Counted from the stretch's first letter, positions 1,147-18,317 are shown. The stretch: 22,972 nt of DNA from Candidatus Eiseniibacteriota bacterium (GCA_965224245.1 CBDCYW010000009.1:1-22972); one strand, 5' to 3'. Program-made: numbers and translations. The notes: generated by a model from the letters alone, not told the origin.

Positions 1147-2499
1147 GGATCCGTCCCGAGTCCTGTGGAAAAACGAAAATGGCGTAACCTCCTGGTTGCC
1201 AAACCAGACCGCCCACCGGGCGAGGAGGAAACGCCATGGCTCAGTCTACCACCGCTCCGTCCCAACTTCCCGTCCGTCACGTCGTTCGTGAGCTTCTCCA
1301 GCAGCGGATCGCACAGGTCGTCGAGGTCGTGATCGAGGAGGAGCTGTCGGAGCTTCTCGGGTCTTCTCGATACCAGCGGACCGATGAGCGTCGAGGCTAT
1401 CGGAACGGGCGAACGTCGCGAACGATCACGACGGAGTCCGGTCCGATGGAGATCTCGGTTCCCAGGGCTCGCGTCCGCGACGAGTCGGGGAACACCACCG
1501 AGTTCACGAGCGAGATCCTGCCCCGCTACGCCCGTCGTACCCGCCGGGTCGACGACGCCATCCTCGGGGTGTATCTCGCCGGCGCGAACAGTCGACGTAT
1601 CCGCAAGGCGCTTCTGCCGCTTCTTGGCGAAGCGAACCTCTCGAAGAGCGCCGTTTCTCGGGTCGTATCTCGACTCAAGGCGCTGTTCCAGAGCTGGAGC
1701 GAGCGGGACCTGAGCGAGGAGACCTATCCGATCGTCATGCTCGATGCGATCCACCTGAAGGTGCGGCTGGCTCGCCGGGTGGTGAGCGTGCCGGTCCTGG
1801 TGGTGATGGGCGTCGATGAGGCCGGAAACAAGCGCCTGGTGGCGCTTCGACTCGCCGCCAGCGAGGCGGCGACGAACTGGGGCGCGGTGATCGAGGACCT
1901 TGGGGCTCGCGGACTCCCGAGTCCTGAGCTGATCATCAGCGACGGTCACAAAGGACTGCTTCGCGCGGTTGCGCTCTGGCCCGAAGCTGGCGTTCAGCGG
2001 TGCACGGTTCACAAGCGTGCGAATCTCGAGGCGTGCTGTCCGGTCCATGCCCGGCCTGAGCTCGCCCGCGACTACCACGCGATCGTCATGGCCACCTCGG
2101 CCATGGACGCACGAGGGGCGTACGACGCGTTCCTGGGTAAGTGGCGGACGCTCTGTCCGGCCGTCGCGAGAAGTCTCGAGGAGGTGGGGCATCAGCTCCT
2201 CACGTTCTACGAGTTCCCCAAGCCGATGTGGAAGTCGCTGCGATCGACCAACTCGATCGAGAATCTGAACCGAGAGTTCCGCCGGCGGACCAAGACCCAA
2301 GCGTCGTTCTCGACCGAAGAGGCGGCGCTGACGTTGCTCTACGGTCTCGTTGCGTTCGGTCAGATCAAGATGCGCAAGATCAACGGACACCAGCACGTGG
2401 CCACGATCTCGGCTCGGAGGTGCCGAGACGCCGCGTAACGCGCTACTATCACGCAATCAGGAGGGCGCTACGCTTTTCCACAACAATCGGGACGCATCC
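1147..2499 (+). mobile_element. IS256-family insertion sequence, copy 1 (1353 bp)
   Basis: Terminal inverted repeats GGATCCGTCCCGAGTCCTGTGGAAAA / GGATGCGTCCCGATTGTTGTGGAAAA (22/26). Ends confirmed by comparison with copy 2. The flanks ATCATTGA and CGAGGCCG are not a target duplication. Confidence 0.95.
1236..2438 (+). CDS. IS256-family (Mutator-type) transposase
   Basis: 400 aa with YRNG...R, MLDAIHLKVR, IISDGHKGL, QRCTVH and RSTNSIENLNREFRRR motifs; RBS GAGGAGG. Confidence 0.96.
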   Translation: MAQSTTAPSQLPVRHVVRELLQQRIAQVVEVVIEEELSELLGSSRYQRTDERRGYRNGRTSRTITTESGPMEISVPRARVRDESGNTTEFTSEILPRYARRTRRVDDAILGVYLAGANSRRIRKALLPLLGEANLSKSAVSRVVSRLKALFQSWSERDLSEETYPIVMLDAIHLKVRLARRVVSVPVLVVMGVDEAGNKRLVALRLAASEAATNWGAVIEDLGARGLPSPELIISDGHKGLLRAVALWPEAGVQRCTVHKRANLEACCPVHARPELARDYHAIVMATSAMDARGAYDAFLGKWRTLCPAVARSLEEVGHQLLTFYEFPKPMWKSLRSTNSIENLNREFRRRTKTQASFSTEEAALTLLYGLVAFGQIKMRKINGHQHVATISARRCRDAA

Positions 2500-3112
2500 C
2501 GAGGCCGTCGCGGTTGATGAGTCTGCGTCCGTGATCTTCATGGCGAACACCGGCATTCCGTACTCGTGCAGTAGCCTGTCCGAGTTGTATGGCGACAAGT
2601 GCTCGGAGTACACGCGTGGGCCCCTGGGCGATGCGTTCGGCGCGATCCAGGTGTTCGTTCTCCTTGCTCGGGAAGGAGGCTTCCCAAACGGTGTTGGCGG
2701 TCTGCAGTTCGGGATCGAGTACGACGAGTCCGTACGGGTGCTGGGGTGGTCGCAATGTTCGGGCGGAGCCGAGATCCCGTCGGACGACTGGCCAGCCAGT
2801 GGGTCGGGGAACGCTTTGACATGGAGGCAGGGGTGCCACGAACCGATGGGTGAGGTCGCGATCGCGGGCTTGCTGGTTGTCGAGGCGCCGCTCGATGGGG
2901 AGTTGAGGATCATCGCGGATCCGAGGGTAGGCATGACGCTGTGGGCAGATTGTAGTGCGGAGCTTGCCGAGATCTGCCCCGGCAACGGCGATACGTTCAA
3001 TCTTGATGAACCAGCGGTCCCGATCTGTGGTGATCAATGCGACGACACCGTTCCGGTCCACGAGGCGTCATGGAGCGCGATCAAGGATCGCTTTGGAGAT
3101 CACGCACCCTAA
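2500..3112 (+). pseudogene. 5'-truncated gene for a Cys-rich, probably secreted protein with C-terminal VPVHEASWSAIKDRF motif
   Basis: Open frame runs from the IS256 right end (EAVAVDES...) to TAA 3110-3112. No signal peptide or RBS remains. An internal ATG is present at 2540. Confidence 0.7.
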
Positions 3113-3777: not shown

Positions 3778-5077
3778 CCCGGGCCGAGCGCGATGTTTTC
3801 GTCCGTGCGCTATCCGGATGCGTCCCGATTGTTGTGGAAAAGCGTAGCGCCCTCCTGATTGCGTGATAGTAGCGCGTTACGGCGTCTCGGCACCTCCGAG
3901 CCGAGATCGTGGCCACGTGCTGGTGTCCGTTGATCTTGCGCATCTTGATCTGACCGAACGCAACGAGACCGTAGAGCAACGTCAGCGCCGCCTCTTCGGT
4001 CGAGAACGACGCTTGGGTCTTGGTCCGCCGGCGGAACTCTCGGTTCAGATTCTCGATCGAGTTGGTCGATCGCAGCGACTTCCACATCGGCTTGGGGAAC
4101 TCGTAGAACGTGAGGAGCTGATGCCCCACCTCCTCGAGACTTCTCGCGACGGCCGGACAGAGCGTCCGCCACTTACCCAGGAACGCGTCGTACGCCCCTC
4201 GTGCGTCCATGGCCGAGGTGGCCATGACGATCGCGTGGTAGTCGCGGGCGAGCTCAGGCCGGGCATGGACCGGACAGCACGCCTCGAGATTCGCACGCTT
4301 GTGAACCGTGCACCGCTGAACGCCAGCTTCGGGCCAGAGCGCAACCGCGCGAAGCAGTCCTTTGTGACCGTCGCTGATGATCAGCTCAGGACTCGGGAGT
4401 CCGCGAGCCCCAAGGTCCTCGATCACCGCGCCCCAGTTCGTCGCCGCCTCGCTGGCGGCGAGTCGAAGCGCCACCAGGCGCTTGTTTCCGGCCTCATCGA
4501 CGCCCATCACCACCAGGACCGGCACGCTCACCACCCGGCGAGCCAGCCGCACCTTCAGGTGGATCGCATCGAGCATGACGATCGGATAGGTCTCCTCGCT
4601 CAGGTCCCGCTCGCTCCAGCTCTGGAACAGCGCCTTGAGTCGAGATACGACCCGAGAAACGGCGCTCTTCGAGAGGTTCGCTTCGCCAAGAAGCGGCAGA
4701 AGCGCCTTGCGGATACGTCGACTGTTCGCGCCGGCGAGATACACCCCGAGGATGGCGTCGTCGACCCGGCGGGTACGACGGGCGTAGCGGGGCAGGATCT
4801 CGCTCGTGAACTCGGTGGTGTTCCCCGACTCGTCGCGGACGCGAGCCCTGGGAACCGAGATCTCCATCGGACCGGACTCCGTCGTGATCGTTCGCGACGT
4901 TCGCCCGTTCCGATAGCCTCGACGCTCATCGGTCCGCTGGTATCGAGAAGACCCGAGAAGCTCCGACAGCTCCTCCTCGATCACGACCTCGACGACCTGT
5001 GCGATCCGCTGCTGGAGAAGCTCACGAACGACGTGACGGACGGGAAGTTGGGACGGAGCGGTGGTAGACTGAGCCAT
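3764..5077 (-). CDS. IS256-family transposase with read-through C-terminal extension
   Basis: Protein identical to copy 1 up to ...RRCRDA, then extended to 437 aa because GCCGCGTAA reads GCCGTAA. Confidence 0.92.
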   Translation of the reverse strand: MAQSTTAPSQLPVRHVVRELLQQRIAQVVEVVIEEELSELLGSSRYQRTDERRGYRNGRTSRTITTESGPMEISVPRARVRDESGNTTEFTSEILPRYARRTRRVDDAILGVYLAGANSRRIRKALLPLLGEANLSKSAVSRVVSRLKALFQSWSERDLSEETYPIVMLDAIHLKVRLARRVVSVPVLVVMGVDEAGNKRLVALRLAASEAATNWGAVIEDLGARGLPSPELIISDGHKGLLRAVALWPEAGVQRCTVHKRANLEACCPVHARPELARDYHAIVMATSAMDARGAYDAFLGKWRTLCPAVARSLEEVGHQLLTFYEFPKPMWKSLRSTNSIENLNREFRRRTKTQASFSTEEAALTLLYGLVAFGQIKMRKINGHQHVATISARRCRDAVTRYYHAIRRALRFSTTIGTHPDSARTKTSRSARACGQ

Positions 5078-5166
5078 GGCGTTTCCTCCTCGCCCGGTGG
5101 GCGGTCTGGTTTGGCAACCAGGAGGTTACGCCATTTTCGTTTTTCCACAGGACTCGGGACGGATCC
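3816..5166 (-). mobile_element. IS256-family insertion sequence, copy 2 (1351 bp), with 8-bp target-site duplication
   Basis: Reverse complement of copy 1 apart from a 2-bp loss at the transposase stop. TSD CGCTATCC at 3808-3815 and 5167-5174. Confidence 0.97.
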
Positions 5167-8391: not shown

Positions 8392-8635
8392 CTACTGCCT
8401 TCGCGGCTCAGCTCCGCCGTAGACTGCTCGAAGTCGTGACCAACTCGAACGCTGAATGGGTGAATGTCCGCCATCTGTCCAATCCGTAACGACGTCACAG
8501 GGCAGGTATCCAAGACCGCCACCTGCGGTGTCGACGCTCCCTAGTGCCTCCGTACGAAACGACTCGTCGATCTCGCCCGTCACGAAGATCGCCGCTCCGA
8601 TCCTCGCATCCGCGGTGACCGAAAGGAGACCCGTC
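8392..8635 (-). pseudogene. 3' remnant of a gene ending in a SPIQRSSWSRLRAVY motif, cut by IS66
   Basis: Open frame from the IS66 left end to the stop at 8392. The C-terminal motif parallels that of 2500-3112. Confidence 0.6.
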
Positions 8636-8707
8636 GTATCCGTTCGGTGAACCCATGTTGAGCCCATCGGCCGGTCCTGAGAACGTGCGCACCCGAGGAG
8701 GTGCCGC

Positions 8708-9064
8708 ATGCTCTCGAAGTCGATCACGACCGCGCTCGCCCCGATCTCCGACAACCGCTACTGGCGGGAGTCGGACGCGGAACGCGCACTTGCCATCTGG
8801 AGCCAGAGTGGGCTCACACTGAACGCCTTTGCGCGACAGTGTGGCCTCAGTGTGTCGCGACTGCGCCGCTGGAAGTCCAAGCTCGAGGCCGACGGCAGCC
8901 CCCGCTTCCACCCGGTCGAGATCGTGGAGACGGCTGACGCCGACGTGGCCGACTCCGACGCCGGTATCGAGCTCATCGTCGGGCAGCGCCACCGGATCGT
9001 CGTCCGCCGCGGCTTCGATCGCACGCTGCTACACGAGCTCATCGAGGCGCTCGATCCGTGCTGA
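8708..9064 (+). CDS. tnpA: IS66 accessory protein TnpA (HTH)
   Basis: WSQSGLTLNAFARQCGLSVSRLRRWKSKL...FHPVEIV...IELIVG; RBS GAGGAGG; overlaps tnpB. Confidence 0.82.
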   Translation: MLSKSITTALAPISDNRYWRESDAERALAIWSQSGLTLNAFARQCGLSVSRLRRWKSKLEADGSPRFHPVEIVETADADVADSDAGIELIVGQRHRIVVRRGFDRTLLHELIEALDPC

Positions 9065-9438
9065 CCCTGCCGCACACCGTGCGCATCTACATCGCCGCTG
9101 AGCCCGTCGATCTCCGCAAGGGCTTCGACGGGCTCTCGGCGGCCACGCGCGAGATCATCTCCGCCGATCCCCTCTCGGGACACCTGTTCGTGTTCATCAA
9201 CCGGCGCGCGAACCGGATGAAGATCCTCGTCTGGCAGCCCTCGGGCTATCTCCTCGTCTACAAGCGCCTCGAACGCGGCCGCTTCACGCTCCCGCGCCAC
9301 CCCGAGGTCGGGTCCTCGCACGTCGAGATCGAGTCGTCGGAGCTGACGTTGCTCCTGGATGGGATCGATCTTCGCGGCTCCCAGCGCCGGAGTCGCTGGT
9401 CGCCGAAGAAGGGACTTGCCTGGCGCGCGACGATGTGA
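9058..9438 (+). CDS. tnpB: IS66 accessory protein TnpB (Orf2)
   Basis: Hallmark YIAAEPVDLRKGFDGL...GHLFVFINRR..RMKIL.W...GY.L.YKRLERGRF. Confidence 0.95.
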   Translation: MLTLPHTVRIYIAAEPVDLRKGFDGLSAATREIISADPLSGHLFVFINRRANRMKILVWQPSGYLLVYKRLERGRFTLPRHPEVGSSHVEIESSELTLLLDGIDLRGSQRRSRWSPKKGLAWRATM

Positions 9439-9450
9439 TTCAAAGAGTGC

Positions 9451-9588
9451 ATGACCTTCGCGCAACTCACTCGTGAACTCGAGCGCTTCCGCTCCGAGCT
9501 CCAGACGCTGGCCGCCAACGGCCGTACCGATGACGCGATCGAGAAGGCGTTCGAGCGCATGCGCCTGCTCCTGCACCGGAACCTCCAT
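9451..9588 (+). pseudogene. tnpC: IS66 transposase TnpC, N-terminal fragment
   Basis: Positioned right after tnpB. Coiled-coil-like 46 codons, interrupted at the IS3 terminus. Confidence 0.6.
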
Positions 9589-9597
9589 TGTTCGTCG

Positions 9598-10656
9598 TCA
9601 GAGCCTTTGGGACACTTCGCGGCTCATCGCTATGGACACTTCCCTCACGTCGGCTGGCCGGATGACGTCCTTTCTCGTGACCGGCAAGCCTAGATTGTAG
9701 CGCCTTCGGCGCCGCAGGGTCTCTCGCTTCACGAGCGCCCTGGCCGAACGGATCTCACGCCCGCGGCCCTCGTACACGTCGGCCGGCGTGAGGTTGTCGA
9801 GCGCCTCGTGGACGCGCTCGTGGTTGTAGTGCTCGACGAACCGACCGATCTCCTCGGACAACTCCGCGGGCTGGTAGTAGTTGCGGAGCGTCACCACGTT
9901 CTTCATCGTGCGGTGGTACCGCTCGATCTTGCCCTGCGTCATCGGGTGGTAGGGTCGACCCCGCGTGTGCGGGATCTCTCGCTCCTGGAGGTACTCCCGG
10001 AGCTGCCCCGAGACGTAGCAGGGACCGTTGTCGGTGAGGAGCCGCGGCCGCTGTCGCACGTGGGGCCGGGTGACCCCGGTGCGGGCGATGGCCTGCTCGA
10101 GCACCCGCTCCACGTCATCGGTCGCCATTTGCCGACAGAGCAGCCAGGCGATGATGAAGCGGCTGAAGTCGTCGAGCACCGTGGCCAGGTAGTACCAGCC
10201 CCAGGCCGTCACCCGGAGGTACGTGAAGTCCGTCTGCCAGAGCTCGTGCACACGTCGGGTCGGGTTCGGGAACTGCTCGTGTGCCGTCAGCACCATGAAC
10301 GACGGGCTCGTCACCAGGTCATGGGCCTTCAGGATGCGATACACGCTCGATTCCGAGATGTACGTCCCATCGACGTCCGTGAGCCGCCAGGCGAGCTCCC
10401 GGGGTGACAGATCGGGGTGTTCGAGCGCCACCTCGACCACGTGCTGCCGCTCTTCGTCGGGGATGCGGTTCCAGAACCGACGAGCCGCCGGCTTGACGCC
10501 CTCCAGCGCCTCGAACCCACCCTCCTGGTACAGCCGGTACCAGCGGTAGAACGTGCTCGGGGCCACCTCCAGCTCGCGCAGCGTCTGCCGGACGCCGAGC
10601 TCGGAGCCCTCGACCAGGCGGATGATCTCGAGCTTCTCCGAGGGCGTGTGCCTCAT
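9598..10656 (-). CDS. IS3-family transposase OrfB (DDE)
   Basis: WQTDFTY, LDDFSR, LLTDNGPCY, HPMTQGKIERYHRTMK, YNHERVHEAL..LTP. Confidence 0.95.
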   Translation of the reverse strand: MRHTPSEKLEIIRLVEGSELGVRQTLRELEVAPSTFYRWYRLYQEGGFEALEGVKPAARRFWNRIPDEERQHVVEVALEHPDLSPRELAWRLTDVDGTYISESSVYRILKAHDLVTSPSFMVLTAHEQFPNPTRRVHELWQTDFTYLRVTAWGWYYLATVLDDFSRFIIAWLLCRQMATDDVERVLEQAIARTGVTRPHVRQRPRLLTDNGPCYVSGQLREYLQEREIPHTRGRPYHPMTQGKIERYHRTMKNVVTLRNYYQPAELSEEIGRFVEHYNHERVHEALDNLTPADVYEGRGREIRSARALVKRETLRRRRRYNLGLPVTRKDVIRPADVREVSIAMSREVSQRL

Positions 10657-11015
10657 CCCACGTCCGACTCGTCGGATAGAGTCGCCCTTTTTTTCAGCAT
10701 CGCATTGCGCACCGACAGATCCGCAACCAGATCCCGGAGCTGACGGATCTGCTCTCGAAGCTCCATCACCTCCGTGCTCGACGCCTCTCGCTTCGTGTTC
10801 CCCTGCAGACGCCGCTTCCCGGCCTCCAGGAACTCCTTGCTCCAGTTGTAGTAGAGGTTCGGGCTGATCCCTTCACGCCGGCACAGCTCCGCGATCGTCT
10901 CCTCGCCCCGGAGACCTTCCAGAACGATCCGGATCTTCTCTTCCGATGAGAACTTACGGCGGGTCTTGCGGCGGATCTCACGAACCACCGATTCCGGGCC
11001 ACTCTTCTTCGACAT
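10653..11015 (-). CDS. IS3-family transposase OrfA (HTH)
   Basis: RRKFSSEEKIRIVLEGLRGEETIAELCRREGI...YYNW; RBS AAGGAG. Confidence 0.95.
   Translation of the reverse strand: MSKKSGPESVVREIRRKTRRKFSSEEKIRIVLEGLRGEETIAELCRREGISPNLYYNWSKEFLEAGKRRLQGNTKREASSTEVMELREQIRQLRDLVADLSVRNAMLKKRATLSDESDVG
10665..10694 (-). other. -1 programmed ribosomal frameshift signal
   Basis: AAAAAAAG (10694-10687) followed by stem CGACTC/GAGTCG. The -1 frame is open into OrfB. Confidence 0.8.
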
Positions 11016-11111
11016 CAGGTCCGCTCCTTGGATGACGATTCAAAGAATACATCCCAGAAGTGACCATAGCGATTATGCTTGATCGTGTCCCATCAGCTCT
11101 GACGCCGAACA

Positions 11112-12309
11112 GGATGCGATGAAAGACTCCCTCGTCGCGGGGATCGATGCGAACTTCGGCATCTACGAGGGTCTCTCGTTCCGATCGGAACGCTTCGAAC
11201 GGTGGCTTGCCGAACATCGGATCCCGTGGCCTCGCTCGGACACGGGGCGGTTGGTATTGGACGATGATACCTTTCGCATCGCCTCGACGACCCATCCGCG
11301 ACTCACCCCCCTCCGCGAGCTTCGTCGGTTCATGTCCCAGCTTCGTGCCCCGGCAATCGCGATCGGACGGGATGGTCGGAACCGATGTCTGCTCTCGGCG
11401 TTTCGGAGCCAGACCGGCCGCAACCAGCCCAGCAATGCGAGGTTCCTGTTTGGGGCGCCGTCGTGGATGCGGGGCTTGATCCAGCCCCGGCCAGGAATGG
11501 CGCTGGCGTATCTCGACTGGTCCCAGCAGGAGTTCGGGATCGCGGCGGCGCTCTCCGAGGACGCGGCCATGATCGAGGCGTATCGATCCGGCGACCCCTA
11601 CCTGGCATTCGCGAAGCAGGCCGGCGCCGTGCCAGACGATGCCACCAAGGCGTCGCACGGATCGGTACGCGACCAGTTCAAGCAGTGCGTACTCGGGGTG
11701 CAGTACGGCATGGGTGAGGAGACCTTGGCGCTGCGCATTGGGCGCCCGCGGCCCTACGCACGTGAACTCTTGGACCTCCACCGTCGAGTCTACAGCCGCT
11801 ACTGGGCATGGTCTCGAGCCGTCATCGACACCGCCATGCTGCATGGCCGGCTCCACACCGTCTTCGGGTGGCACCTGCACGTCACGCCATCGACGCGGAG
11901 CCGTTCGCTGGCGAACTTCCCGATGCAGGCTAACGGAGCCGAGATGCTGCGGCTGACCTGCATCCGCGCCACCGAGGCCGGGGTCCACGTCTGCGCCCCC
12001 GTTCACGATGCCATCCTGGTCGAGGCGCCTGCGGTTTCGATCGAGACGGTGGTTCAGCACGCCCAGCGAGCCATGGCCAGGGCAAGCGAGGATGTTCTCG
12101 GCACCCTCACCCTGCGCACCGATGCCCGAGTCGTACACCACCCCGGTCGCCTCCTCGAACCGCGAGGCGAACCCATGTGGGGCCGGGTTCTCGCGGCGCT
12201 CGAAAGCGCTGAACGAGCCCGCCGCCCCGCCGATCCGGTGGTACATCAGCGCAACAGAGATGTTGCGCGCGTGGACCACCCGTCCTCTCTCCTCTCTTCT
12301 TATACCTAG
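11112..12309 (+). pseudogene. Family A DNA polymerase of mobile-element type, 5'-truncated by IS3 (polymerase domain remains; in-frame ATG at 11119)
   Basis: TGRNQPS, motif A YLDWSQQEF, motif B RDQFKQCVLGVQYGMG, NFPMQANGAEM, motif C VHDAILVE. The frame abuts the IS3 end. Confidence 0.9.
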
Positions 12310-12319
12310 GTAGGTAATC

Positions 12320-12682
12320 ATGCCGGCACATGACCCGCAGGAACGACGACTCTCGCTGGAGGCCACACGGGAGATCGAGACTGAATACAACCAGCGTCGA
12401 GCCGGGTGGTTCATTCGTGGACCGCTTCCCTTGCACTGGATCGCCATGGCGTCCGCGCTTCCCGGAAAGGCTTTACACGTAGCGCTACTTCTACAGTTCC
12501 GTCGGGGTTGCGAGGGCAAGGAGCCCGTTCGACTGACCCGGCACCACCGCGAGCTGTTCGGACTGAGTCGGCACGCAACTTATCGCGCCCTCCAGGCATT
12601 GGAGTCCGCCGGCCTCGTGGAGGTCACTCGCCGGCGCGGACGATGTCCACTGGTCCGCATCCTAAGCGTGCCCGCCCCGTGA
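12320..12682 (+). CDS. Winged-HTH DNA-binding protein
   Basis: FGLSRHATYRALQALESAGLVEVTRRRGR; starts 10 bp after the polymerase stop. Confidence 0.78.
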   Translation: MPAHDPQERRLSLEATREIETEYNQRRAGWFIRGPLPLHWIAMASALPGKALHVALLLQFRRGCEGKEPVRLTRHHRELFGLSRHATYRALQALESAGLVEVTRRRGRCPLVRILSVPAP

Positions 12683-12861
12683 CGGCCCCAGCAGCCCCCC
12701 CGACGCGTGGTGATGGGGTCCGGGCGGCGCTGACGGGCCTCCTCGCTCGCGCCTACATCCGCCTGATCACCGGCGAGCCCCCGGACGATCGACTTGATGT
12801 GCCGCCCGACGCGAGCGTCCATGTCCCCACGGTTGACACCCCGAGAGAGGAGGACGCGTGA
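12679..12861 (+). CDS. Small hypothetical protein (LLARAYIRL)
   Basis: GTGA overlaps with both the upstream stop and the downstream start; 60 aa. Confidence 0.55.
   Translation: MTAPAAPPTRGDGVRAALTGLLARAYIRLITGEPPDDRLDVPPDASVHVPTVDTPREEDA
12793..12824 (+). promoter_or_regulatory. Element motif copy 1: CTTGA-N15-GAGCG-TC-CATGT
   Basis: 33 nt upstream of the DUF2924 start; same spacing as the two other copies. Confidence 0.65.
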
Positions 12862-13343
12862 CCCTGGACCTGGATCGAGAGCTGGAGACGCTCGGGGGCA
12901 TGACGATCGCCGAGCTCCAGCGGCGCTACCGCGACGTGTGGGGCGAGGAGACGCGCTCGCACTCGAAGCCGCACCTGGTGAAGCGGATCGCCTGGAGGCT
13001 CCAGGCCGACGACGAAGGCTTCTCAGGCCACCCGGAGGCGGTGATGGCAAGGGCCCGGGAGCTGGCGGACTTCGCATTCCTACGCACGCGCCCGCCGTCT
13101 GACGCCGGGGCCGGTACGTCGCCTCGCGTCCGCAAGCGCCTGCGATCACGTGATCTCAACCTCCCGCCGGCCGGCACCGTGCTGCGTCGCGAGTACAGAG
13201 GCCGCGTCCTGGAGTGCCGCGTCCTCGAGCACGGCTTCGAGTTCGACGGCGAGGTGTATCGCTCGCTCAGCGGGGCGGCGAGGGCGGCGACGGGCGTGAA
13301 CTGGAACGGCAAGGTGTTCTGGCTCAAGGGAGCGAGGGACTGA
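12858..13343 (+). CDS. DUF2924 domain protein
   Basis: ELQRRYRDVWGE...LVKRIAWRLQ...PAGTVLRREYRG...GFEFDGEVYRSLSGAARAATGVNWNGKVF; RBS GAGGAGG; directly before the recombinase. Confidence 0.9.
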   Translation: MTLDLDRELETLGGMTIAELQRRYRDVWGEETRSHSKPHLVKRIAWRLQADDEGFSGHPEAVMARARELADFAFLRTRPPSDAGAGTSPRVRKRLRSRDLNLPPAGTVLRREYRGRVLECRVLEHGFEFDGEVYRSLSGAARAATGVNWNGKVFWLKGARD

Positions 13344-13345
13344 CG

Positions 13346-14896
13346 ATGGCCGTCCTGTTGACGAGAACCCGCAACGGCAAGCGCCATGAGCCGGCCATCA
13401 TCCGCTGCGCCGTCTACGCCCGCGTCTCCGTCGACGACGGCCCCGATCAGGTCCTCAGCTCCACCGAGGCCCAGCAGGAGGCCGTCCTCGCCTACATCGC
13501 CAGCCAACGCCATGCCGGGTGGATCGCCTTGCCCGACGTCTACGAGGACCGTGGCTTCAGCGGCGGCGACACGCGTCGGCCGGCGTTCCAGCGCCTGCTC
13601 CGGGACGTCGAGAGCGGCGAGGTCGACCGCATCGTGGTGCACCGCATCGACAGGCTGAGCCGGAGCCTCGCCGACTTCGTGAGGATCATGGAGACGCTCG
13701 ACCGTCATGGCGTCGGACTCGTCAGCGTGACGCAGCAGCTCGACACAACGACCTCGATGGGTAAGCTGACGATGAACTTGCTGTTCTCGTTCGCCGAGTT
13801 CGAGCGCGAGATGATCTGCGAGCGGACGCGCGACAAGATGCGGGCGGCGCGACGTCGAGGCCAGTGGACCGGTGGTGTTCCCGTGCTCGGATACGATGTC
13901 GCGGACGGCGGTGGCCGGCTCGTGGTCAACGAAGGCGAAGCTGAGAGAGTCCGGGCGATCATCTCGACCTACCTGGAGACGCGCTCGCTCTCGGCCACGA
14001 TCGCCGAGATCCGCCGCCGGGGCTGGACCACGAAACGCTGGGTGTCAGCCTCGGGCAAGGCCCACGGCGGCGGCGAGTTCGGCAAGTCGACGCTCCAGAA
14101 GCTCCTGACGAACCCGCTCTACGTCGGCCGCATCCGGGCCGGTGACGAGATCGTCGACGCCGAGCATGAGGCCATCGTGGACGTCGAGACGTTCGAGGCC
14201 GCCCAGGCGTGCCTCCAGGGGAACCGCGTCACGAACGGCTCGGCCCCGAAGACGAAGCGCACGGCGATGCTGGCCGGCCTCCTCCGATGCAGCGCGTGCG
14301 ACTCAGCGATGACGCGGTCTTGCACCACGAAGGGCCGCAGGCGCTACGCGTACTACGTGTGTGTCTCGCGCCAGAAGGAAGGCACCCACGTCTGCCCCAC
14401 CGCTCCCGTCGCCGCCGGCGAGATCGAAGCGTTCGTGGTCGACCAGATCCGGGGCATCGGCAGCGACCCGAAGCTCATCGCCGCCGTCGTGGCGTCGGCG
14501 AAAGCCCAGGCGAAGGCTCGCGCAAAGGAGCTGGCCAACGACGTCCGCATGCTCGACGCCGAGATCAAGCAGATGCGTGGAGAACTCAGCCGCGCTCGTG
14601 GCGACGCCGACGACGACCGGATCGCCGAGGTCGCTCGACGCCTCAAGACCACCGAGCGCCGACGCCGTGTGGCCCACGAGACGCTCGTAGCGGCGCGTGG
14701 CCGCGCGATCAACCGCACGGGCGTCTCGGAAGCCCTGTCGGAGTTCGACGCGCTCTGGGCGCGTTTGACGGCGCGCGAGAAGCACGAGGCGCTGGCGCTG
14801 CTCGTCGAGCGTGTCGAGTACGATGGCGCGTCCGGCGAGGTGGCGATCACGTTCCGCGAGGAGGCGGCCTCGCTTCTACCCGGAGGTCACCCGTGA
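13346..14896 (+). CDS. Large serine recombinase (resolvase, recombinase and zinc-ribbon domains)
   Basis: CAVYARVS, DRLSRS, FAEFEREMI.ER, LLTNPLYVG, LAGLLRCSAC...YYVC...C, and a coiled coil. Confidence 0.96.
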   Translation: MAVLLTRTRNGKRHEPAIIRCAVYARVSVDDGPDQVLSSTEAQQEAVLAYIASQRHAGWIALPDVYEDRGFSGGDTRRPAFQRLLRDVESGEVDRIVVHRIDRLSRSLADFVRIMETLDRHGVGLVSVTQQLDTTTSMGKLTMNLLFSFAEFEREMICERTRDKMRAARRRGQWTGGVPVLGYDVADGGGRLVVNEGEAERVRAIISTYLETRSLSATIAEIRRRGWTTKRWVSASGKAHGGGEFGKSTLQKLLTNPLYVGRIRAGDEIVDAEHEAIVDVETFEAAQACLQGNRVTNGSAPKTKRTAMLAGLLRCSACDSAMTRSCTTKGRRRYAYYVCVSRQKEGTHVCPTAPVAAGEIEAFVVDQIRGIGSDPKLIAAVVASAKAQAKARAKELANDVRMLDAEIKQMRGELSRARGDADDDRIAEVARRLKTTERRRRVAHETLVAARGRAINRTGVSEALSEFDALWARLTAREKHEALALLVERVEYDGASGEVAITFREEAASLLPGGHP

Positions 14897-15222
14897 GCGT
14901 CACCATTCGCGCCAAGTTCAGCCCCAAGTCTGCCCCTGCCGAGGTGCCCGACGTCCCCACCGTGCCCCGATCGGCCCGGCTCATGGCGCTGGCGCTCGCG
15001 CTCGACGAGATGGTGCGCGATGGGCGGGTGGAGTCGTACGCAGAGGTGGCTCGGGTTGCCGGGGTGTCTAGGGCGAGGGTGTCGCAGATCACGGCGCTGC
15101 TGGGGCTGGCGCCGGACATCCAGGCGGCGTTGCTGGATGGGACCCTGGTGGTTGGGGAGACCCGGCTTCGGGCGGCGCTGCGGTCATCCTCATGGTCCGA
15201 CCAGCGTCGCGCCCTGCCCTGA
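14893..15222 (+). CDS. Recombinase-associated HTH protein
   Basis: GTGA overlap with the recombinase stop; SYAEVARVAGVSRARVSQITALLGLAPDIQ. Confidence 0.75.
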   Translation: MSVTIRAKFSPKSAPAEVPDVPTVPRSARLMALALALDEMVRDGRVESYAEVARVAGVSRARVSQITALLGLAPDIQAALLDGTLVVGETRLRAALRSSSWSDQRRALP

Positions 15223-15266
15223 ACTCTGCCGCTTTCGTGCCCCGGAATGTTCCTACCCCGGCCCTC

Positions 15267-15275
15267 TGCTATGCT
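15267..15275 (+). promoter_or_regulatory. Possible extended -10 element (TGcTATGCT)
   Basis: About 46 nt upstream of the hemolysin III ATG. A similar TGgTACGAT lies at 16022-16030, before the YecA-like gene. Confidence 0.3.
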
Positions 15276-15321
15276 GCCGCCCTCCACCAGGTCGATGTAA
15301 GGAGCGTTGTAGATCCGAACC

Positions 15322-15969
15322 ATGTCTGCCAGAGATCCCGACGAGAAGTTCACGGCCGCCGAGGAGCTGGCCCATAGCCTGACTCACGGCGTCGGCTTGC
15401 TGATCGGGATCGCGGCGCTCGTTCTCATGATCGTGTTTGCGGCTCGGAGGGGCTCCGCGATCGACGTGGTCTCTTGCACCGTCTACGGGGCCACGCTGGT
15501 CGTCCTGTATGCGTCGTCAACGGTCTACCACGCGCTGCCTTCTGGACGTGGCAAGCGGGTCTTCGGCATTCTCGACCACTCCGCGATTTATCTGCTGATC
15601 GCGGGTACCTACACACCCTTCGCTCTCATTACGCTCGATGGGCGCTGGGGATGGAGCCTCTTCGCCGTGGTCTGGGGCCTCGCGATCGGGGGGATTGTGC
15701 TGGAAGCCGTCTCGCGTGGTCGTGCGCGTCGCATCCAACTGCTGCTCTATGTCTTGATGGGCTGGGGGATCGTCGGCGCTGCCCGGCCATTGCTGACAGA
15801 ACTCGCACCTGCGGGACTCGCCTTGCTCCTGGCCGGCGGTCTCGCGTACACGCTCGGCATCGTCTTCTTCGTTTCGCGACACCCGTTCCATCATGCGATC
15901 TGGCACATGTTTGTTCTCGGCGGCAGCATTTGTCACTTCTTCGCCGTGTTCCTCTACGTCATTCCCTAG
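15322..15969 (+). CDS. trhA: Hemolysin III / PAQR family membrane protein (TrhA/YqfA-like)
   Basis: [47 protein letters not shown]; multiple transmembrane segments. Confidence 0.95.
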
Positions 15970-16075
15970 GCGATCCTCATACGATACTCTCGTGGTCGGA
16001 TCGGAGACCTCCCACGACGCGTGGTACGATGCGCCGAGGCGAGGGCCTACTACCCCCTTCAATCCGGTGGTGCAC

Positions 16076-16783: not shown

Positions 16784-17380
16784 TCAGCACGGCAGGCTGC
16801 GGATCTGCTCTGCCATCTCCTCGTCGCTCGGGTGAAGGTAGATCATCGTGGTGAGCGGCGACGCGTGCCGAGCGAACCGTTGTGCCAGGAAGAGGTCCCG
16901 GCTTGCTCGGTAGACCATGGTGACACTTGTGTGGCGAAGTACGTGCCAGTTATAGAGACGATCGAAGGACGCCTTTCGCTGCCATTCGTGAAACATCATC
17001 TGCGTCCGCCTCGGTGACAACCGTCGCCCCCACGACGAGATGAACAGCGGCGCGTCGCTCTCCAGCGGCTCCCGCATCATCGCCTTCCACGCCAGGAACC
17101 GCGTCAGCTTCTCGACGACCCGATCGGGCAGAAACACCTCGCCCTTGCGCGAGCCCTTGGTCGTCTCGACGCGCAGCTTGATGCGCGTGCGCACGCGGAC
17201 GCCATCGGGACTGACGTCCCCGACGTCGAGGCCGAGGAGTTCGCCGAGGCGAAGCCCGGTGCCCAGCGCCATCGAGATCATCACGTGATCGCGGGGGCGT
17301 GGACTCTCCGCGCTGACGTCGAGGAGCCGGCGCTGTTCGGCGGTCGTCATGGTCTCGGGGGCTCGATACGGCAATCTCAT
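16784..17380 (-). CDS. Tyrosine recombinase, catalytic domain only (about 198 aa)
   Basis: ALGTGLRLGELLGL, TKG, HVLRHT, FARH, TTMIY. ATG 17380 follows GAGAGGAGG; alternative ATG at 17350. Confidence 0.9.
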   Translation of the reverse strand: MRLPYRAPETMTTAEQRRLLDVSAESPRPRDHVMISMALGTGLRLGELLGLDVGDVSPDGVRVRTRIKLRVETTKGSRKGEVFLPDRVVEKLTRFLAWKAMMREPLESDAPLFISSWGRRLSPRRTQMMFHEWQRKASFDRLYNWHVLRHTSVTMVYRASRDLFLAQRFARHASPLTTMIYLHPSDEEMAEQIRSLPC

Positions 17381-17558
17381 CCTCCTCTCGCGCGGGGCTA
17401 ACAGTCGATCCGGTAGTCTGCCCGCGTTCCCCAACAACGAGCCGCTCCGCATCACGGGCCTCAACGACTCGCTCGCGGGGAACTCCAACTCTGATCCGCC
17501 CCCGGTCCGGCCAATTGTCGGCTCGCCGGGGGCGTTTTCGTTTCGACACCTGCCGCTC

Positions 17559-17590
17559 ACATCACCGCTCGCCGCCCCGCTCCAGTCAAC
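17559..17590 (-). promoter_or_regulatory. Element motif copy 2: GTTGA-N15-GAGCG-GT-GATGT
   Basis: Points toward the tyrosine recombinase leader. Confidence 0.65.
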
Positions 17591-17621
17591 CGAGAAAGCC
17601 TGAGTTAACCCATTGCCATTG

Positions 17622-17653
17622 CTTGACTTAACTCGGAGCCAGAGCGGTCATGT
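17622..17653 (+). promoter_or_regulatory. Element motif copy 3: CTTGA-N15-GAGCG-GT-CATGT
   Basis: 52 nt upstream of ATG 17706; back-to-back with copy 2. Confidence 0.65.
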
Positions 17654-17705
17654 GTCGCACTGGCGCGCAATCCGCAGCGCCTGCGACACAGGCGAGGAGG
17701 TCGAC

Positions 17706-18317
17706 ATGGCGACGACGAAGAAGAAGGCTCCGAGGAAGACAGCGGCGAAGGCGACCAAGGGCGGCACCGGGGCCAAGTCAGGCCGCGCGGCGAGGGCACG
17801 GGCGAAGAAGGCCCCCGGGGCCGCGCCCGCGAAGAAGAAGCGCACACGGGCCGCGACTGGCGGCGACGGCGGCGCCCCTGACCTGGACGCGCTCCGCGCC
17901 ACCGTCGTCGAGGCCGAACGCGCCGTCCGCGACATGGAGGCCGAGGCCGCCAAGCTCCACGCGGAGGCCAACGGCATCGTGGCCGACGCCAAGGCGCGCT
18001 TCCGCGACGTGCTGGCCCCGTACCGCGACGCGTGCAAGAAGGCCCGTGTCCGCTGCGAGTTCACCGGCGGGCGCGCCACCAACGTCTCCGAGCGCGTGAC
18101 GTTCCTCGTCGAGAAGAGCGGCAAGAGCGTGAAGGTCGCGATCAAGGGTCGGCCGGACACCGAGGAGGTACTGAACCCCGACTTGATCAAGGTCTCGATC
18201 AACAAGGCGGCGCTCGATTACACCGATCGGCATCTCGGGCCTCGCGAGGTCGTCGGGAACAAGTCGGGGTCGTTGGCGAATCGACTACGGGCGGTGCTCA
18301 AGAAGAAAGCGCACTGA
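17706..18317 (+). CDS. Hypothetical basic protein with Lys/Ala-rich (histone H1-like) N-terminus and coiled coil
   Basis: RBS GAGGAGG; MATTKKKAPRKTAAKATK...AKKAPGAAPAKKKR; strongly GC-biased third codon positions. Confidence 0.82.
   Translation: MATTKKKAPRKTAAKATKGGTGAKSGRAARARAKKAPGAAPAKKKRTRAATGGDGGAPDLDALRATVVEAERAVRDMEAEAAKLHAEANGIVADAKARFRDVLAPYRDACKKARVRCEFTGGRATNVSERVTFLVEKSGKSVKVAIKGRPDTEEVLNPDLIKVSINKAALDYTDRHLGPREVVGNKSGSLANRLRAVLKKKAH

Follow-up and report, generated by a model that had tools for sequence, protein, structure and literature searches.

Remnant of a family A DNA polymerase module joined to a phage-type serine recombinase cassette in a Candidatus Eiseniibacteriota contig

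The described systems closest to the locus analysed here are integrative elements that bring a DNA polymerase of their own, and phages that share its recombinase genes. The locus lies in a 22,972-bp stretch of DNA, hereafter the window, which is the entire contig C10 (GCA_965224245.1 CBDCYW010000009.1:1-22972) of a Candidatus Eiseniibacteriota bacterium whose assembly comprises 6.9 Mb in 27 contigs; in it, a fragment of a family A DNA polymerase gene is followed by genes for a winged-helix protein, a DUF2924 protein and a large serine recombinase. Staphylococcal cassette chromosome (SCC) islands of the SCCmec type reportedly combine CCPol-MP-Cch2 with Ccr large serine recombinases, an arrangement said to have been described by Bebel et al. 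in 2020. In the accessible portion of Rice 2023 (PMC10061031), SCC-type islands of Bacillota encode a family A polymerase together with a helicase and an SSB-like partner, are moved by large serine recombinases and bring restriction-modification cargo. Pipolins, according to the available excerpts of PMC11551731 and PMC5695915, are small integrative elements with defence cargo and their own polymerase, a primer-independent family B enzyme. Within family A, the reclassification by Czernecki et al. (NAR 2023, PMC10201439) defined a cluster 15, the 'CHEAPs'. The accessible sections of that paper give as traits of the subfamily a leucine at a motif-B position that is aromatic in Pol I, a conserved exonuclease domain and coexistence with a canonical Pol I; they report strong primer extension and exonuclease activity for the enzyme of Ideonella dechloratans, term the subfamily 'cellular', and name the SCCmec CCPols as its nearest relatives. 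The gene context of CHEAP polymerases is described neither in those sections nor in the literature searched, whose coverage stops short of subscription journals; in the same literature, DUF2924 is mentioned in work on Wolbachia only.

Our preferred reading of the locus, to which we assign a probability of roughly 0.75, is that a mosaic integrative element of phage origin, now degraded and composed of two independent modules, has its integrase-proximal end in this stretch. Module 1 (11119-12682), most likely dead, is a replication-cassette remnant; module 2 (12679-15222) consists of four genes and is an intact temperate-phage integration cassette. The anatomy of the locus, the truncation of its polymerase, the conservation patterns of its genes and the modular independence of both parts are matters of observation. 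That polymerase and recombinase stand together here is a chance outcome of module shuffling at this one place and does not mark a new kind of self-copying element; the locus as a whole is a degraded remnant of an ordinary sort, assembled from module types already known.

Six same-strand ORFs (open reading frames) are tightly packed across 11119-15222 (Table 1), and their junctions comprise one 10-nt gap, three GTGA overlaps and one 2-nt gap. A preliminary description of this DNA had reported the same six-gene string with tight junctions, and the string is real. It had also reported that capsid and conjugation genes are lacking, and among the larger window ORFs, scanned against Pfam and PHROGs, no match to capsid, terminase or conjugation families was found. 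It had further credited the element with a polymerase of its own. Of that polymerase, an enzyme of ~580 aa, the C-terminal 396 aa alone remain, the gene having been cut by an element of the IS3 family of insertion sequences (IS). The Pfam match is restricted to model positions 141-362 of 381, and the reading frame is closed upstream by a TGA at 11080, within the IS3 element. Full-length relatives measure 570-615 aa and are 55-64% identical; the window protein aligns with them only from about residue 210, so that ~205-210 N-terminal residues are missing and with them the whole 3'-5' exonuclease domain (DFEF, YYASAE, YCESD).

Table 1. Features of the window, in order of position.
Feature	Position	Strand	Matches and remarks
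IS256-family element (Mutator-type transposase), copy 1	1147-2502		
IS256-family element (Mutator-type transposase), copy 2	3813-5166		inverted orientation relative to copy 1
IS66 element, left part	8635-9588		TnpA-like 8708-9064; TnpB 9058-9438
IS3-family insertion sequence	9589-11112	-	orfA 10653-11015, orfB 9598-10656; HTH_Tnp_1 and rve domains
Family A DNA polymerase fragment	11119-12309	+	PF00476 DNA_pol_A, E 4e-24, above curated cut-off
Winged-helix protein	12320-12682	+	weak GntR/TrmB-type match
60-aa ORF, first gene of the cassette	12679-12861	+	C-terminal ~45 codons kept in all cassette copies; no family match in PHROGs or NCBIfam
DUF2924 protein	12858-13343	+	PF11149, E 2e-31, model positions 2-132 of 135; phrog_11806
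Large serine recombinase, apparently intact	13346-14896	+	Resolvase, Recombinase and Zn_ribbon_recom, all above cut-offs; phrog_95 integrase, E 1e-120
Small helix-turn-helix (HTH) protein, last gene of the cassette	14893-15222	+	weak ParB-HTH; phrog_14161 'recombinase', E 1e-12
Haemolysin-III-family membrane protein gene	15322-15969		directly 3' of the cassette
Short tyrosine recombinase	16784-17560	-	
234-aa ORF	17613-18317	+	divergent from the tyrosine recombinase; no family match

The IS3 element accounts for the position of the cut. Its final base is 11112, where the preliminary description had let the element begin, and the polymerase ATG at 11119 lies 7 nt past its end. It is bounded by imperfect 27-nt inverted repeats (9589-9615 and 11085-11111) and has five other full-length copies in the genome (85-99% identity). 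No target-site duplication was found at its ends, where the flanks differ (CAT on the left, GGA on the right), and the left part of an IS66 element ends exactly at its start; over this part, three IS66 copies elsewhere in the genome are 99.9-100% identical. The differing flanks and the truncated left neighbour together indicate an IS-mediated rearrangement or deletion. Neither the polymerase N-terminus (5 tblastn queries) nor the protein that precedes the polymerase in relatives (12 queries) was found anywhere in the assembly. An IS3-mediated rearrangement would thus have removed the first gene of the module together with the exonuclease third of the polymerase, and it is because of this loss that we take the replication module to be most likely dead. 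Judged from its sequence, the window polymerase is truncated and cannot be the working core of an element.

Sequence comparison places the window polymerase in the CHEAP subfamily. It is one row of an alignment of relatives (A1) and shares all invariant columns of that alignment, among them the D of YxDWSQQE, K and Y in motif B, and the HD in CAPVHDA. We take these residues to represent polymerase motifs A, B and C. The leucine L401, at position B3, is invariant in A1, and a 912-aa Pol I-like frame is present on contig C1 of the same genome, so the subfamily's sequence likeness, its B3 leucine and its coexistence with Pol I all recur here. The I. dechloratans sequence (supplement of PMC10201439, seen in part) and the A1 consensus, compared by eye, have the same motifs. 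Unlike the full-length relatives, which have the ~580-aa size and both domains of a CHEAP, the window ORF has only its C-terminal 396 aa. Against known phages and plasmids, the fragment reaches 24-31% identity only.

We regard it as the least probable account of the locus, and a very improbable one, that the truncated polymerase is not dead and serves as an exonuclease-less enzyme with a new role, like the naturally truncated SCCmec CCPol primase-polymerases. Its cut point is set by the IS boundary, without target duplication, which argues for rearrangement and not for an evolved form, although every invariant A1 column, the polymerase catalytic motifs included, has been retained. An ATG with a ribosome-binding-site-like AGGA does follow the IS end, yet no SSB-like or other partner gene precedes the polymerase. 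CCPols function with only part of the exonuclease domain (accessible parts of PMC10201439 and PMC10061031); among the relatives of the window polymerase that were listed, however, no other such form was found, the short proteins that occur lying on short contigs.

Module 2 is independent of the polymerase. The cassette of 60-aa ORF, DUF2924 gene, recombinase gene and small HTH gene has 10 close copies in the window's genome (64-92% amino-acid identity), 7 complete and 3 cut at contig ends, and one further, distant copy. Polymerase and winged-helix genes are found only at the C10 copy, and the 9 other close copies are without such a polymerase. DUF2924 proteins elsewhere in the genome are 64-91% identical to that of the window; the recombinase has eight further full-length or near-full-length copies (77-89% identity) plus partial ones cut at contig ends; and the small HTH gene is kept in all 7 complete cassettes, that of the window included. 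What the other copies adjoin varies: RepO and DnaB; a PrimPol with a D5-type helicase; a D5-type primase with Sak4, SSB and an ERCC4 nuclease; or a DnaG-type primase. D12-class methyltransferases accompany other copies, and two cassette-bearing contigs, C9 and C6, encode a terminase large subunit. The contig C9 also has, beside its terminase gene, a gene with a CAP12/Pycsar-type TIR effector domain (L182:358-1335).

The recombinase itself combines the three domains of a large serine recombinase in one protein of ~500 aa, and it was found in 14 of the 41 genomes of the phylum that were searched, the window's own included. Its catalytic domain starts with YARVS, which presumably contains the nucleophile serine. 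The cassette is syntenic with gp5-gp2 of the Acidithiobacillus phage AcaML1, where all four genes occur in the same order and with overlapping junctions. The recombinase is 45% identical to gp3 over 373 aa, the DUF2924 protein 31%, the small HTH protein 32% over 53 aa to gp2, which is annotated as 'recombinase small subunit', and the 60-aa ORF 31% over 59 aa to gp5 (pairwise E 6e-4). In the Wolbachia phage WO, DUF2924 again stands next to a serine recombinase (gp30-gp31). In these phages the module lies beside ordinary phage genes, whereas in the window it abuts a polymerase remnant. The cassette belongs to a phage integration module that sequenced phages already contain, and its four genes, those for DUF2924, the HTH ORF, the 60-aa ORF and the recombinase, move together as a unit. 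This fixed unit, to which DUF2924 belongs, is the right one for testing directionality control.

Nucleotide similarity among the cassette copies starts at ~12720-12743, inside the 60-aa ORF, and mostly ends at ~15206-15220; in the alignment of the 10 copies it begins ~130-140 nt 5' of the DUF2924 start. The left break, just past the winged-helix stop, could be taken to mean that a serine-recombinase phage integrated beside, or recombined with, a foreign polymerase-island remnant, the junction being fortuitous and the two modules never having cooperated. Other features agree with such an account: among 206 genomes of the phylum, the polymerase turned up in that of the window alone, while the cassette is common in the phylum; G+C is ~0.64-0.66 in the polymerase part against 0.69-0.70 in the cassette; and the region is riddled with IS256, IS66 and IS3 copies. 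However, the break 5' of the small ORF is seen in every cassette copy and, being common to all, marks a general module boundary and not an insertion scar specific to this locus. Furthermore, the cassette occupies exactly the site, directly 3' of the winged-helix gene, at which relatives of the polymerase module have a tyrosine integrase, and its start codon overlaps the preceding stop, as in one of these relatives (L082, below). We therefore consider two unrelated neighbours unlikely and favour one mosaic element, decapitated by IS activity.

To characterize intact polymerase loci, one genome for each of 185,579 species was scanned, giving 505 confirmed loci among 568 candidate stretches, of which 80 were examined. 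A metagenome scan confirmed at least 590 loci (80 examined), and IMG/VR contributed 22. Partners were counted by profile searches over six-frame translations in these 182 loci (80 genome, 80 metagenome, 22 viral) of more than 1000 known; ORFs in related loci were called mechanically. The order in intact relatives is a ~195-aa protein, a ~580-aa CHEAP polymerase with exonuclease and polymerase domains, and a winged-helix protein. Among loci with room for it, the ~195-aa protein abuts the polymerase start in 63/75 genome, 48/55 metagenome and 13/16 viral loci, and in most loci its gene is translationally coupled to that start. The winged-helix gene lies downstream in 69/74, 57/59 and 14/22 loci with room, respectively. 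A tyrosine integrase is present anywhere in the locus in 56/80, 31/80 and 12/22 cases; it stands a few kb upstream of the polymerase or directly 3' of the winged-helix gene, often with a tRNA or tmRNA gene as its neighbour, and 18 of 40 loci scanned contain such an RNA gene. When all ORFs of 80 loci were clustered, recurrent neighbours were limited to the ~195-aa protein, the winged helix, integrases and small HTH genes, with no helicase cluster among them.

The two partners have little annotation. The family of the ~195-aa protein (L076:9411-9986 and 45 relatives, alignment A2) has nine invariant residues, four of them tryptophan. It gave no match in Pfam or NCBIfam, one chance-level match in a profile search of the PDB, and no feature match in the ESM Atlas, whose model of it is poor. 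The winged-helix protein has generic GntR/MarR-type matches only. A comparison of this protein with phage RepO gave no link (hhalign probability 2%).

DUF2924 was found in none of the 182 loci (0/80 genome, 0/80 metagenome, 0/22 viral), and serine recombinases near the polymerase are rare: 4/80 genome and 2/80 metagenome loci by tblastn (E 1e-3), and 1/80 genome, 1/80 metagenome and 3/22 viral loci by phmmer (E 1e-10). These counts bear on the view that the stretch is an intact self-replicating or satellite-like core, with DUF2924 and a large serine recombinase functionally coupled to its family A polymerase. Its genes do share one strand and tight junctions, the cassette overlapping the winged-helix gene by a GTGA; small islands with the polymerase module and without structural genes do occur elsewhere; and the SCC-type elements of Bacillota do pair a family A polymerase with large serine recombinases (accessible portion of PMC10061031). 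Set against this are the absence of DUF2924 from all polymerase loci counted, the nine other close cassettes without a polymerase, the IS cut that took ~205-210 residues, and the conserved upstream partner missing from the assembly, and we judge such a coupled core to be highly unlikely. The linkage of polymerase and recombinase, whose conservation had been set beforehand as the test of the preliminary description, is thus not conserved, the usual integrase being of the tyrosine type. The partners conserved at homologous loci are the ~195-aa protein upstream and the winged-helix gene downstream; DUF2924 and the recombinase are not among them.

A rare pairing with a serine recombinase is seen in a Caenispirillum isolate (L082), where partner protein, polymerase and winged helix are followed by a 582-aa serine recombinase whose gene, adjacent to tRNA-Met, has a 4-nt overlap with the stop of the winged-helix gene. 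This locus is an independent example of recombinase swapping. In one IMG/VR locus (L190:4456-7646), a 579-aa large serine recombinase and a 440-aa tyrosine integrase stand in tandem upstream of the polymerase module, with a terminase downstream.

The intact module occurs both in small islands and in phages. Of 78 loci that are 9 kb or longer, 9 have direct repeats on either side of the polymerase, spanning 7.2-17.1 kb; five of these repeats overlap tRNA genes, and one, of 20 nt, may be due to chance. One such island of 11.3 kb (L065) carries a SmaI-type restriction-modification system, and another of 10.2 kb (L042) has other cargo. A satellite-like layout is seen in relatives of 7-17 kb that combine an integrase and AlpA/HTH_17 genes with the polymerase module, and no packaging-redirection gene or helper phage was identified for them. 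No terminal overlap of 20-200 nt, as expected of a circular contig, was found in the 160 genome and metagenome loci. In IMG/VR, a collection chosen for hallmark genes of viruses, 18/21 loci have a terminase, portal, capsid or head-protease match next to the module, and one more has tail and lysis genes (86 of 115 ORFs scanned, polymerase ORFs and locus L207 being left out). Phage genes were also sought in 134 ORFs of at least 200 aa within ~6.5 kb of the polymerase in 18 genome loci (12 ORFs of two further loci and 2 alternative-frame ORFs were left out). One of these loci, in a Bryobacterales genome (L049), has terminase small and large subunits and a portal directly 3' of the winged-helix gene. 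A transglycosylase match at another locus (L081) lies past the flanking tRNA gene. The presence of the module in phages as well as in islands where no structural genes were found near the polymerase makes it a replication cassette common to temperate phages and to small islands laid out like phage satellites. The Bryobacterales chromosome has three copies of a small phage-like element (L049, L051 and L052, the first with a split polymerase frame), in which integrase and HTH_17 genes precede those for the partner protein, polymerase and winged helix, and genes for the small and the large terminase subunit and a portal come after them.

The preliminary description had loosely likened the locus to pipolins, as a self-replicating or satellite-like integrative element that uses PolA. 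The likeness holds in that the polymerase belongs to a replication module of mobile elements, some of them repeat-flanked islands of 7-17 kb, and fails for the window copy, which is truncated; the resemblance to pipolins is one of concept only, since those have a family B enzyme and the polymerase here is of family A and also occurs in phages with capsid genes. The description had named intact homologues in ordinary prophages with structural genes as a ground for its rejection, and intact homologues do sit in phages as well. The structural genes of a tailed prophage are absent from the window ORFs scanned but present in L049, in the 18 IMG/VR loci and on two other cassette contigs. Overall, the preliminary observation is partly confirmed and its interpretation partly supported.

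The closest functional analogue is the SCC-type island of Bacillota. Shared traits are an integrative island with a family A polymerase, movement by large serine recombinases and, often, restriction-modification cargo. They differ in that no SSB-like or helicase gene is conserved beside the polymerase here, a Pol-SSB-helicase arrangement not being recurrent in the 80 loci clustered; in that full-length relatives here keep the whole exonuclease domain; and in that tyrosine integrases at tRNA genes predominate among the relatives, many of which are phages. As for the CHEAPs, they were called 'cellular' in the accessible sections of PMC10201439, whereas the genes examined here sit in mobile elements with two conserved partners.

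Several points weigh against the mosaic reading that we prefer. The upstream part has been lost, and owing to this loss a single functional element comprising both the polymerase module and the cassette, as opposed to two neighbours, is what we infer. The term 'phage-derived' draws on relatives and on the other cassette copies, the window ORFs scanned being free of structural phage genes. Those other copies lie on small contigs that may stem from more than one replicon or population. Head or packaging genes were not found in 17 of the 18 genome loci within ~6.5 kb of the polymerase, and the proportion of phages seen in IMG/VR is not generalisable. Finally, the AGGA stands 4 nt 5' of the ATG at 11119, and the truncated protein could still be made.

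Under the mosaic reading, the two modules would have been joined by the module exchange typical of temperate phages before the IS3-mediated loss. In the intact state, the recombinase would integrate and excise the element while its three small partners set direction or site choice, as the gene families suggest; the polymerase trio would replicate the excised circle, as suggested by the families and by the published activity of one CHEAP enzyme. For priming without a helicase or primase gene in the module, our guesses are that the unannotated partner acts like the MP of SCCmec CCPol, or that host transcripts are extended as in ColE1. A wider proposal is tentative, and we consider it possible but somewhat less probable than its opposite: the ~195-aa protein, the CHEAP polymerase and the winged helix may form a self-contained replication cassette, without helicase or primase, that shuttles between temperate phages and satellite-like islands, at tRNA genes or via serine recombinases, across many phyla. 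The ~195-aa protein would then be a new polymerase partner for priming or origin recognition, functionally like the MP of SCCmec CCPol, and the window would hold such a cassette captured, outside its usual hosts, by a local serine-recombinase phage lineage.

The locus itself, a broken remnant in an IS-rich contig, is of little weight. Of more consequence is the subfamily to which its polymerase belongs: named 'cellular' and known as a fast proofreading enzyme, the CHEAP appears instead to be a mobile-element replicase with two conserved, unannotated partners, in a module that occurs in phages and small defence-cargo islands of many phyla. With this survey, the question of how an excised element can be replicated by a lone family A polymerase becomes open to test.

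A scan of 11000-16000 gave 0 promoter-like sites and 3 weak terminator-like sites and was not informative, and a tRNA gene scan of the window found none. The two IS256-family elements of the window, inverted relative to each other and 99.8% identical, bracket a 1.3-kb segment in the manner of a composite transposon; the main contig has three more IS256 copies, 99.9-100% identical to them. The haemolysin-III-family gene shares ~85-88% nucleotide identity with neighbours of cassette copies on C1 and C18, with a 72% copy on C26, and behaves like moron-type cargo of the element. The short tyrosine recombinase and the divergent 234-aa ORF recur 3' of at least 5 other cassette copies (70-86% nucleotide identity), and genes for secreted beta-propeller proteins with FlgD-Ig C-terminal domains come after them. 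This framework may belong to the elements or may be a target locus that is repeated in the genome.

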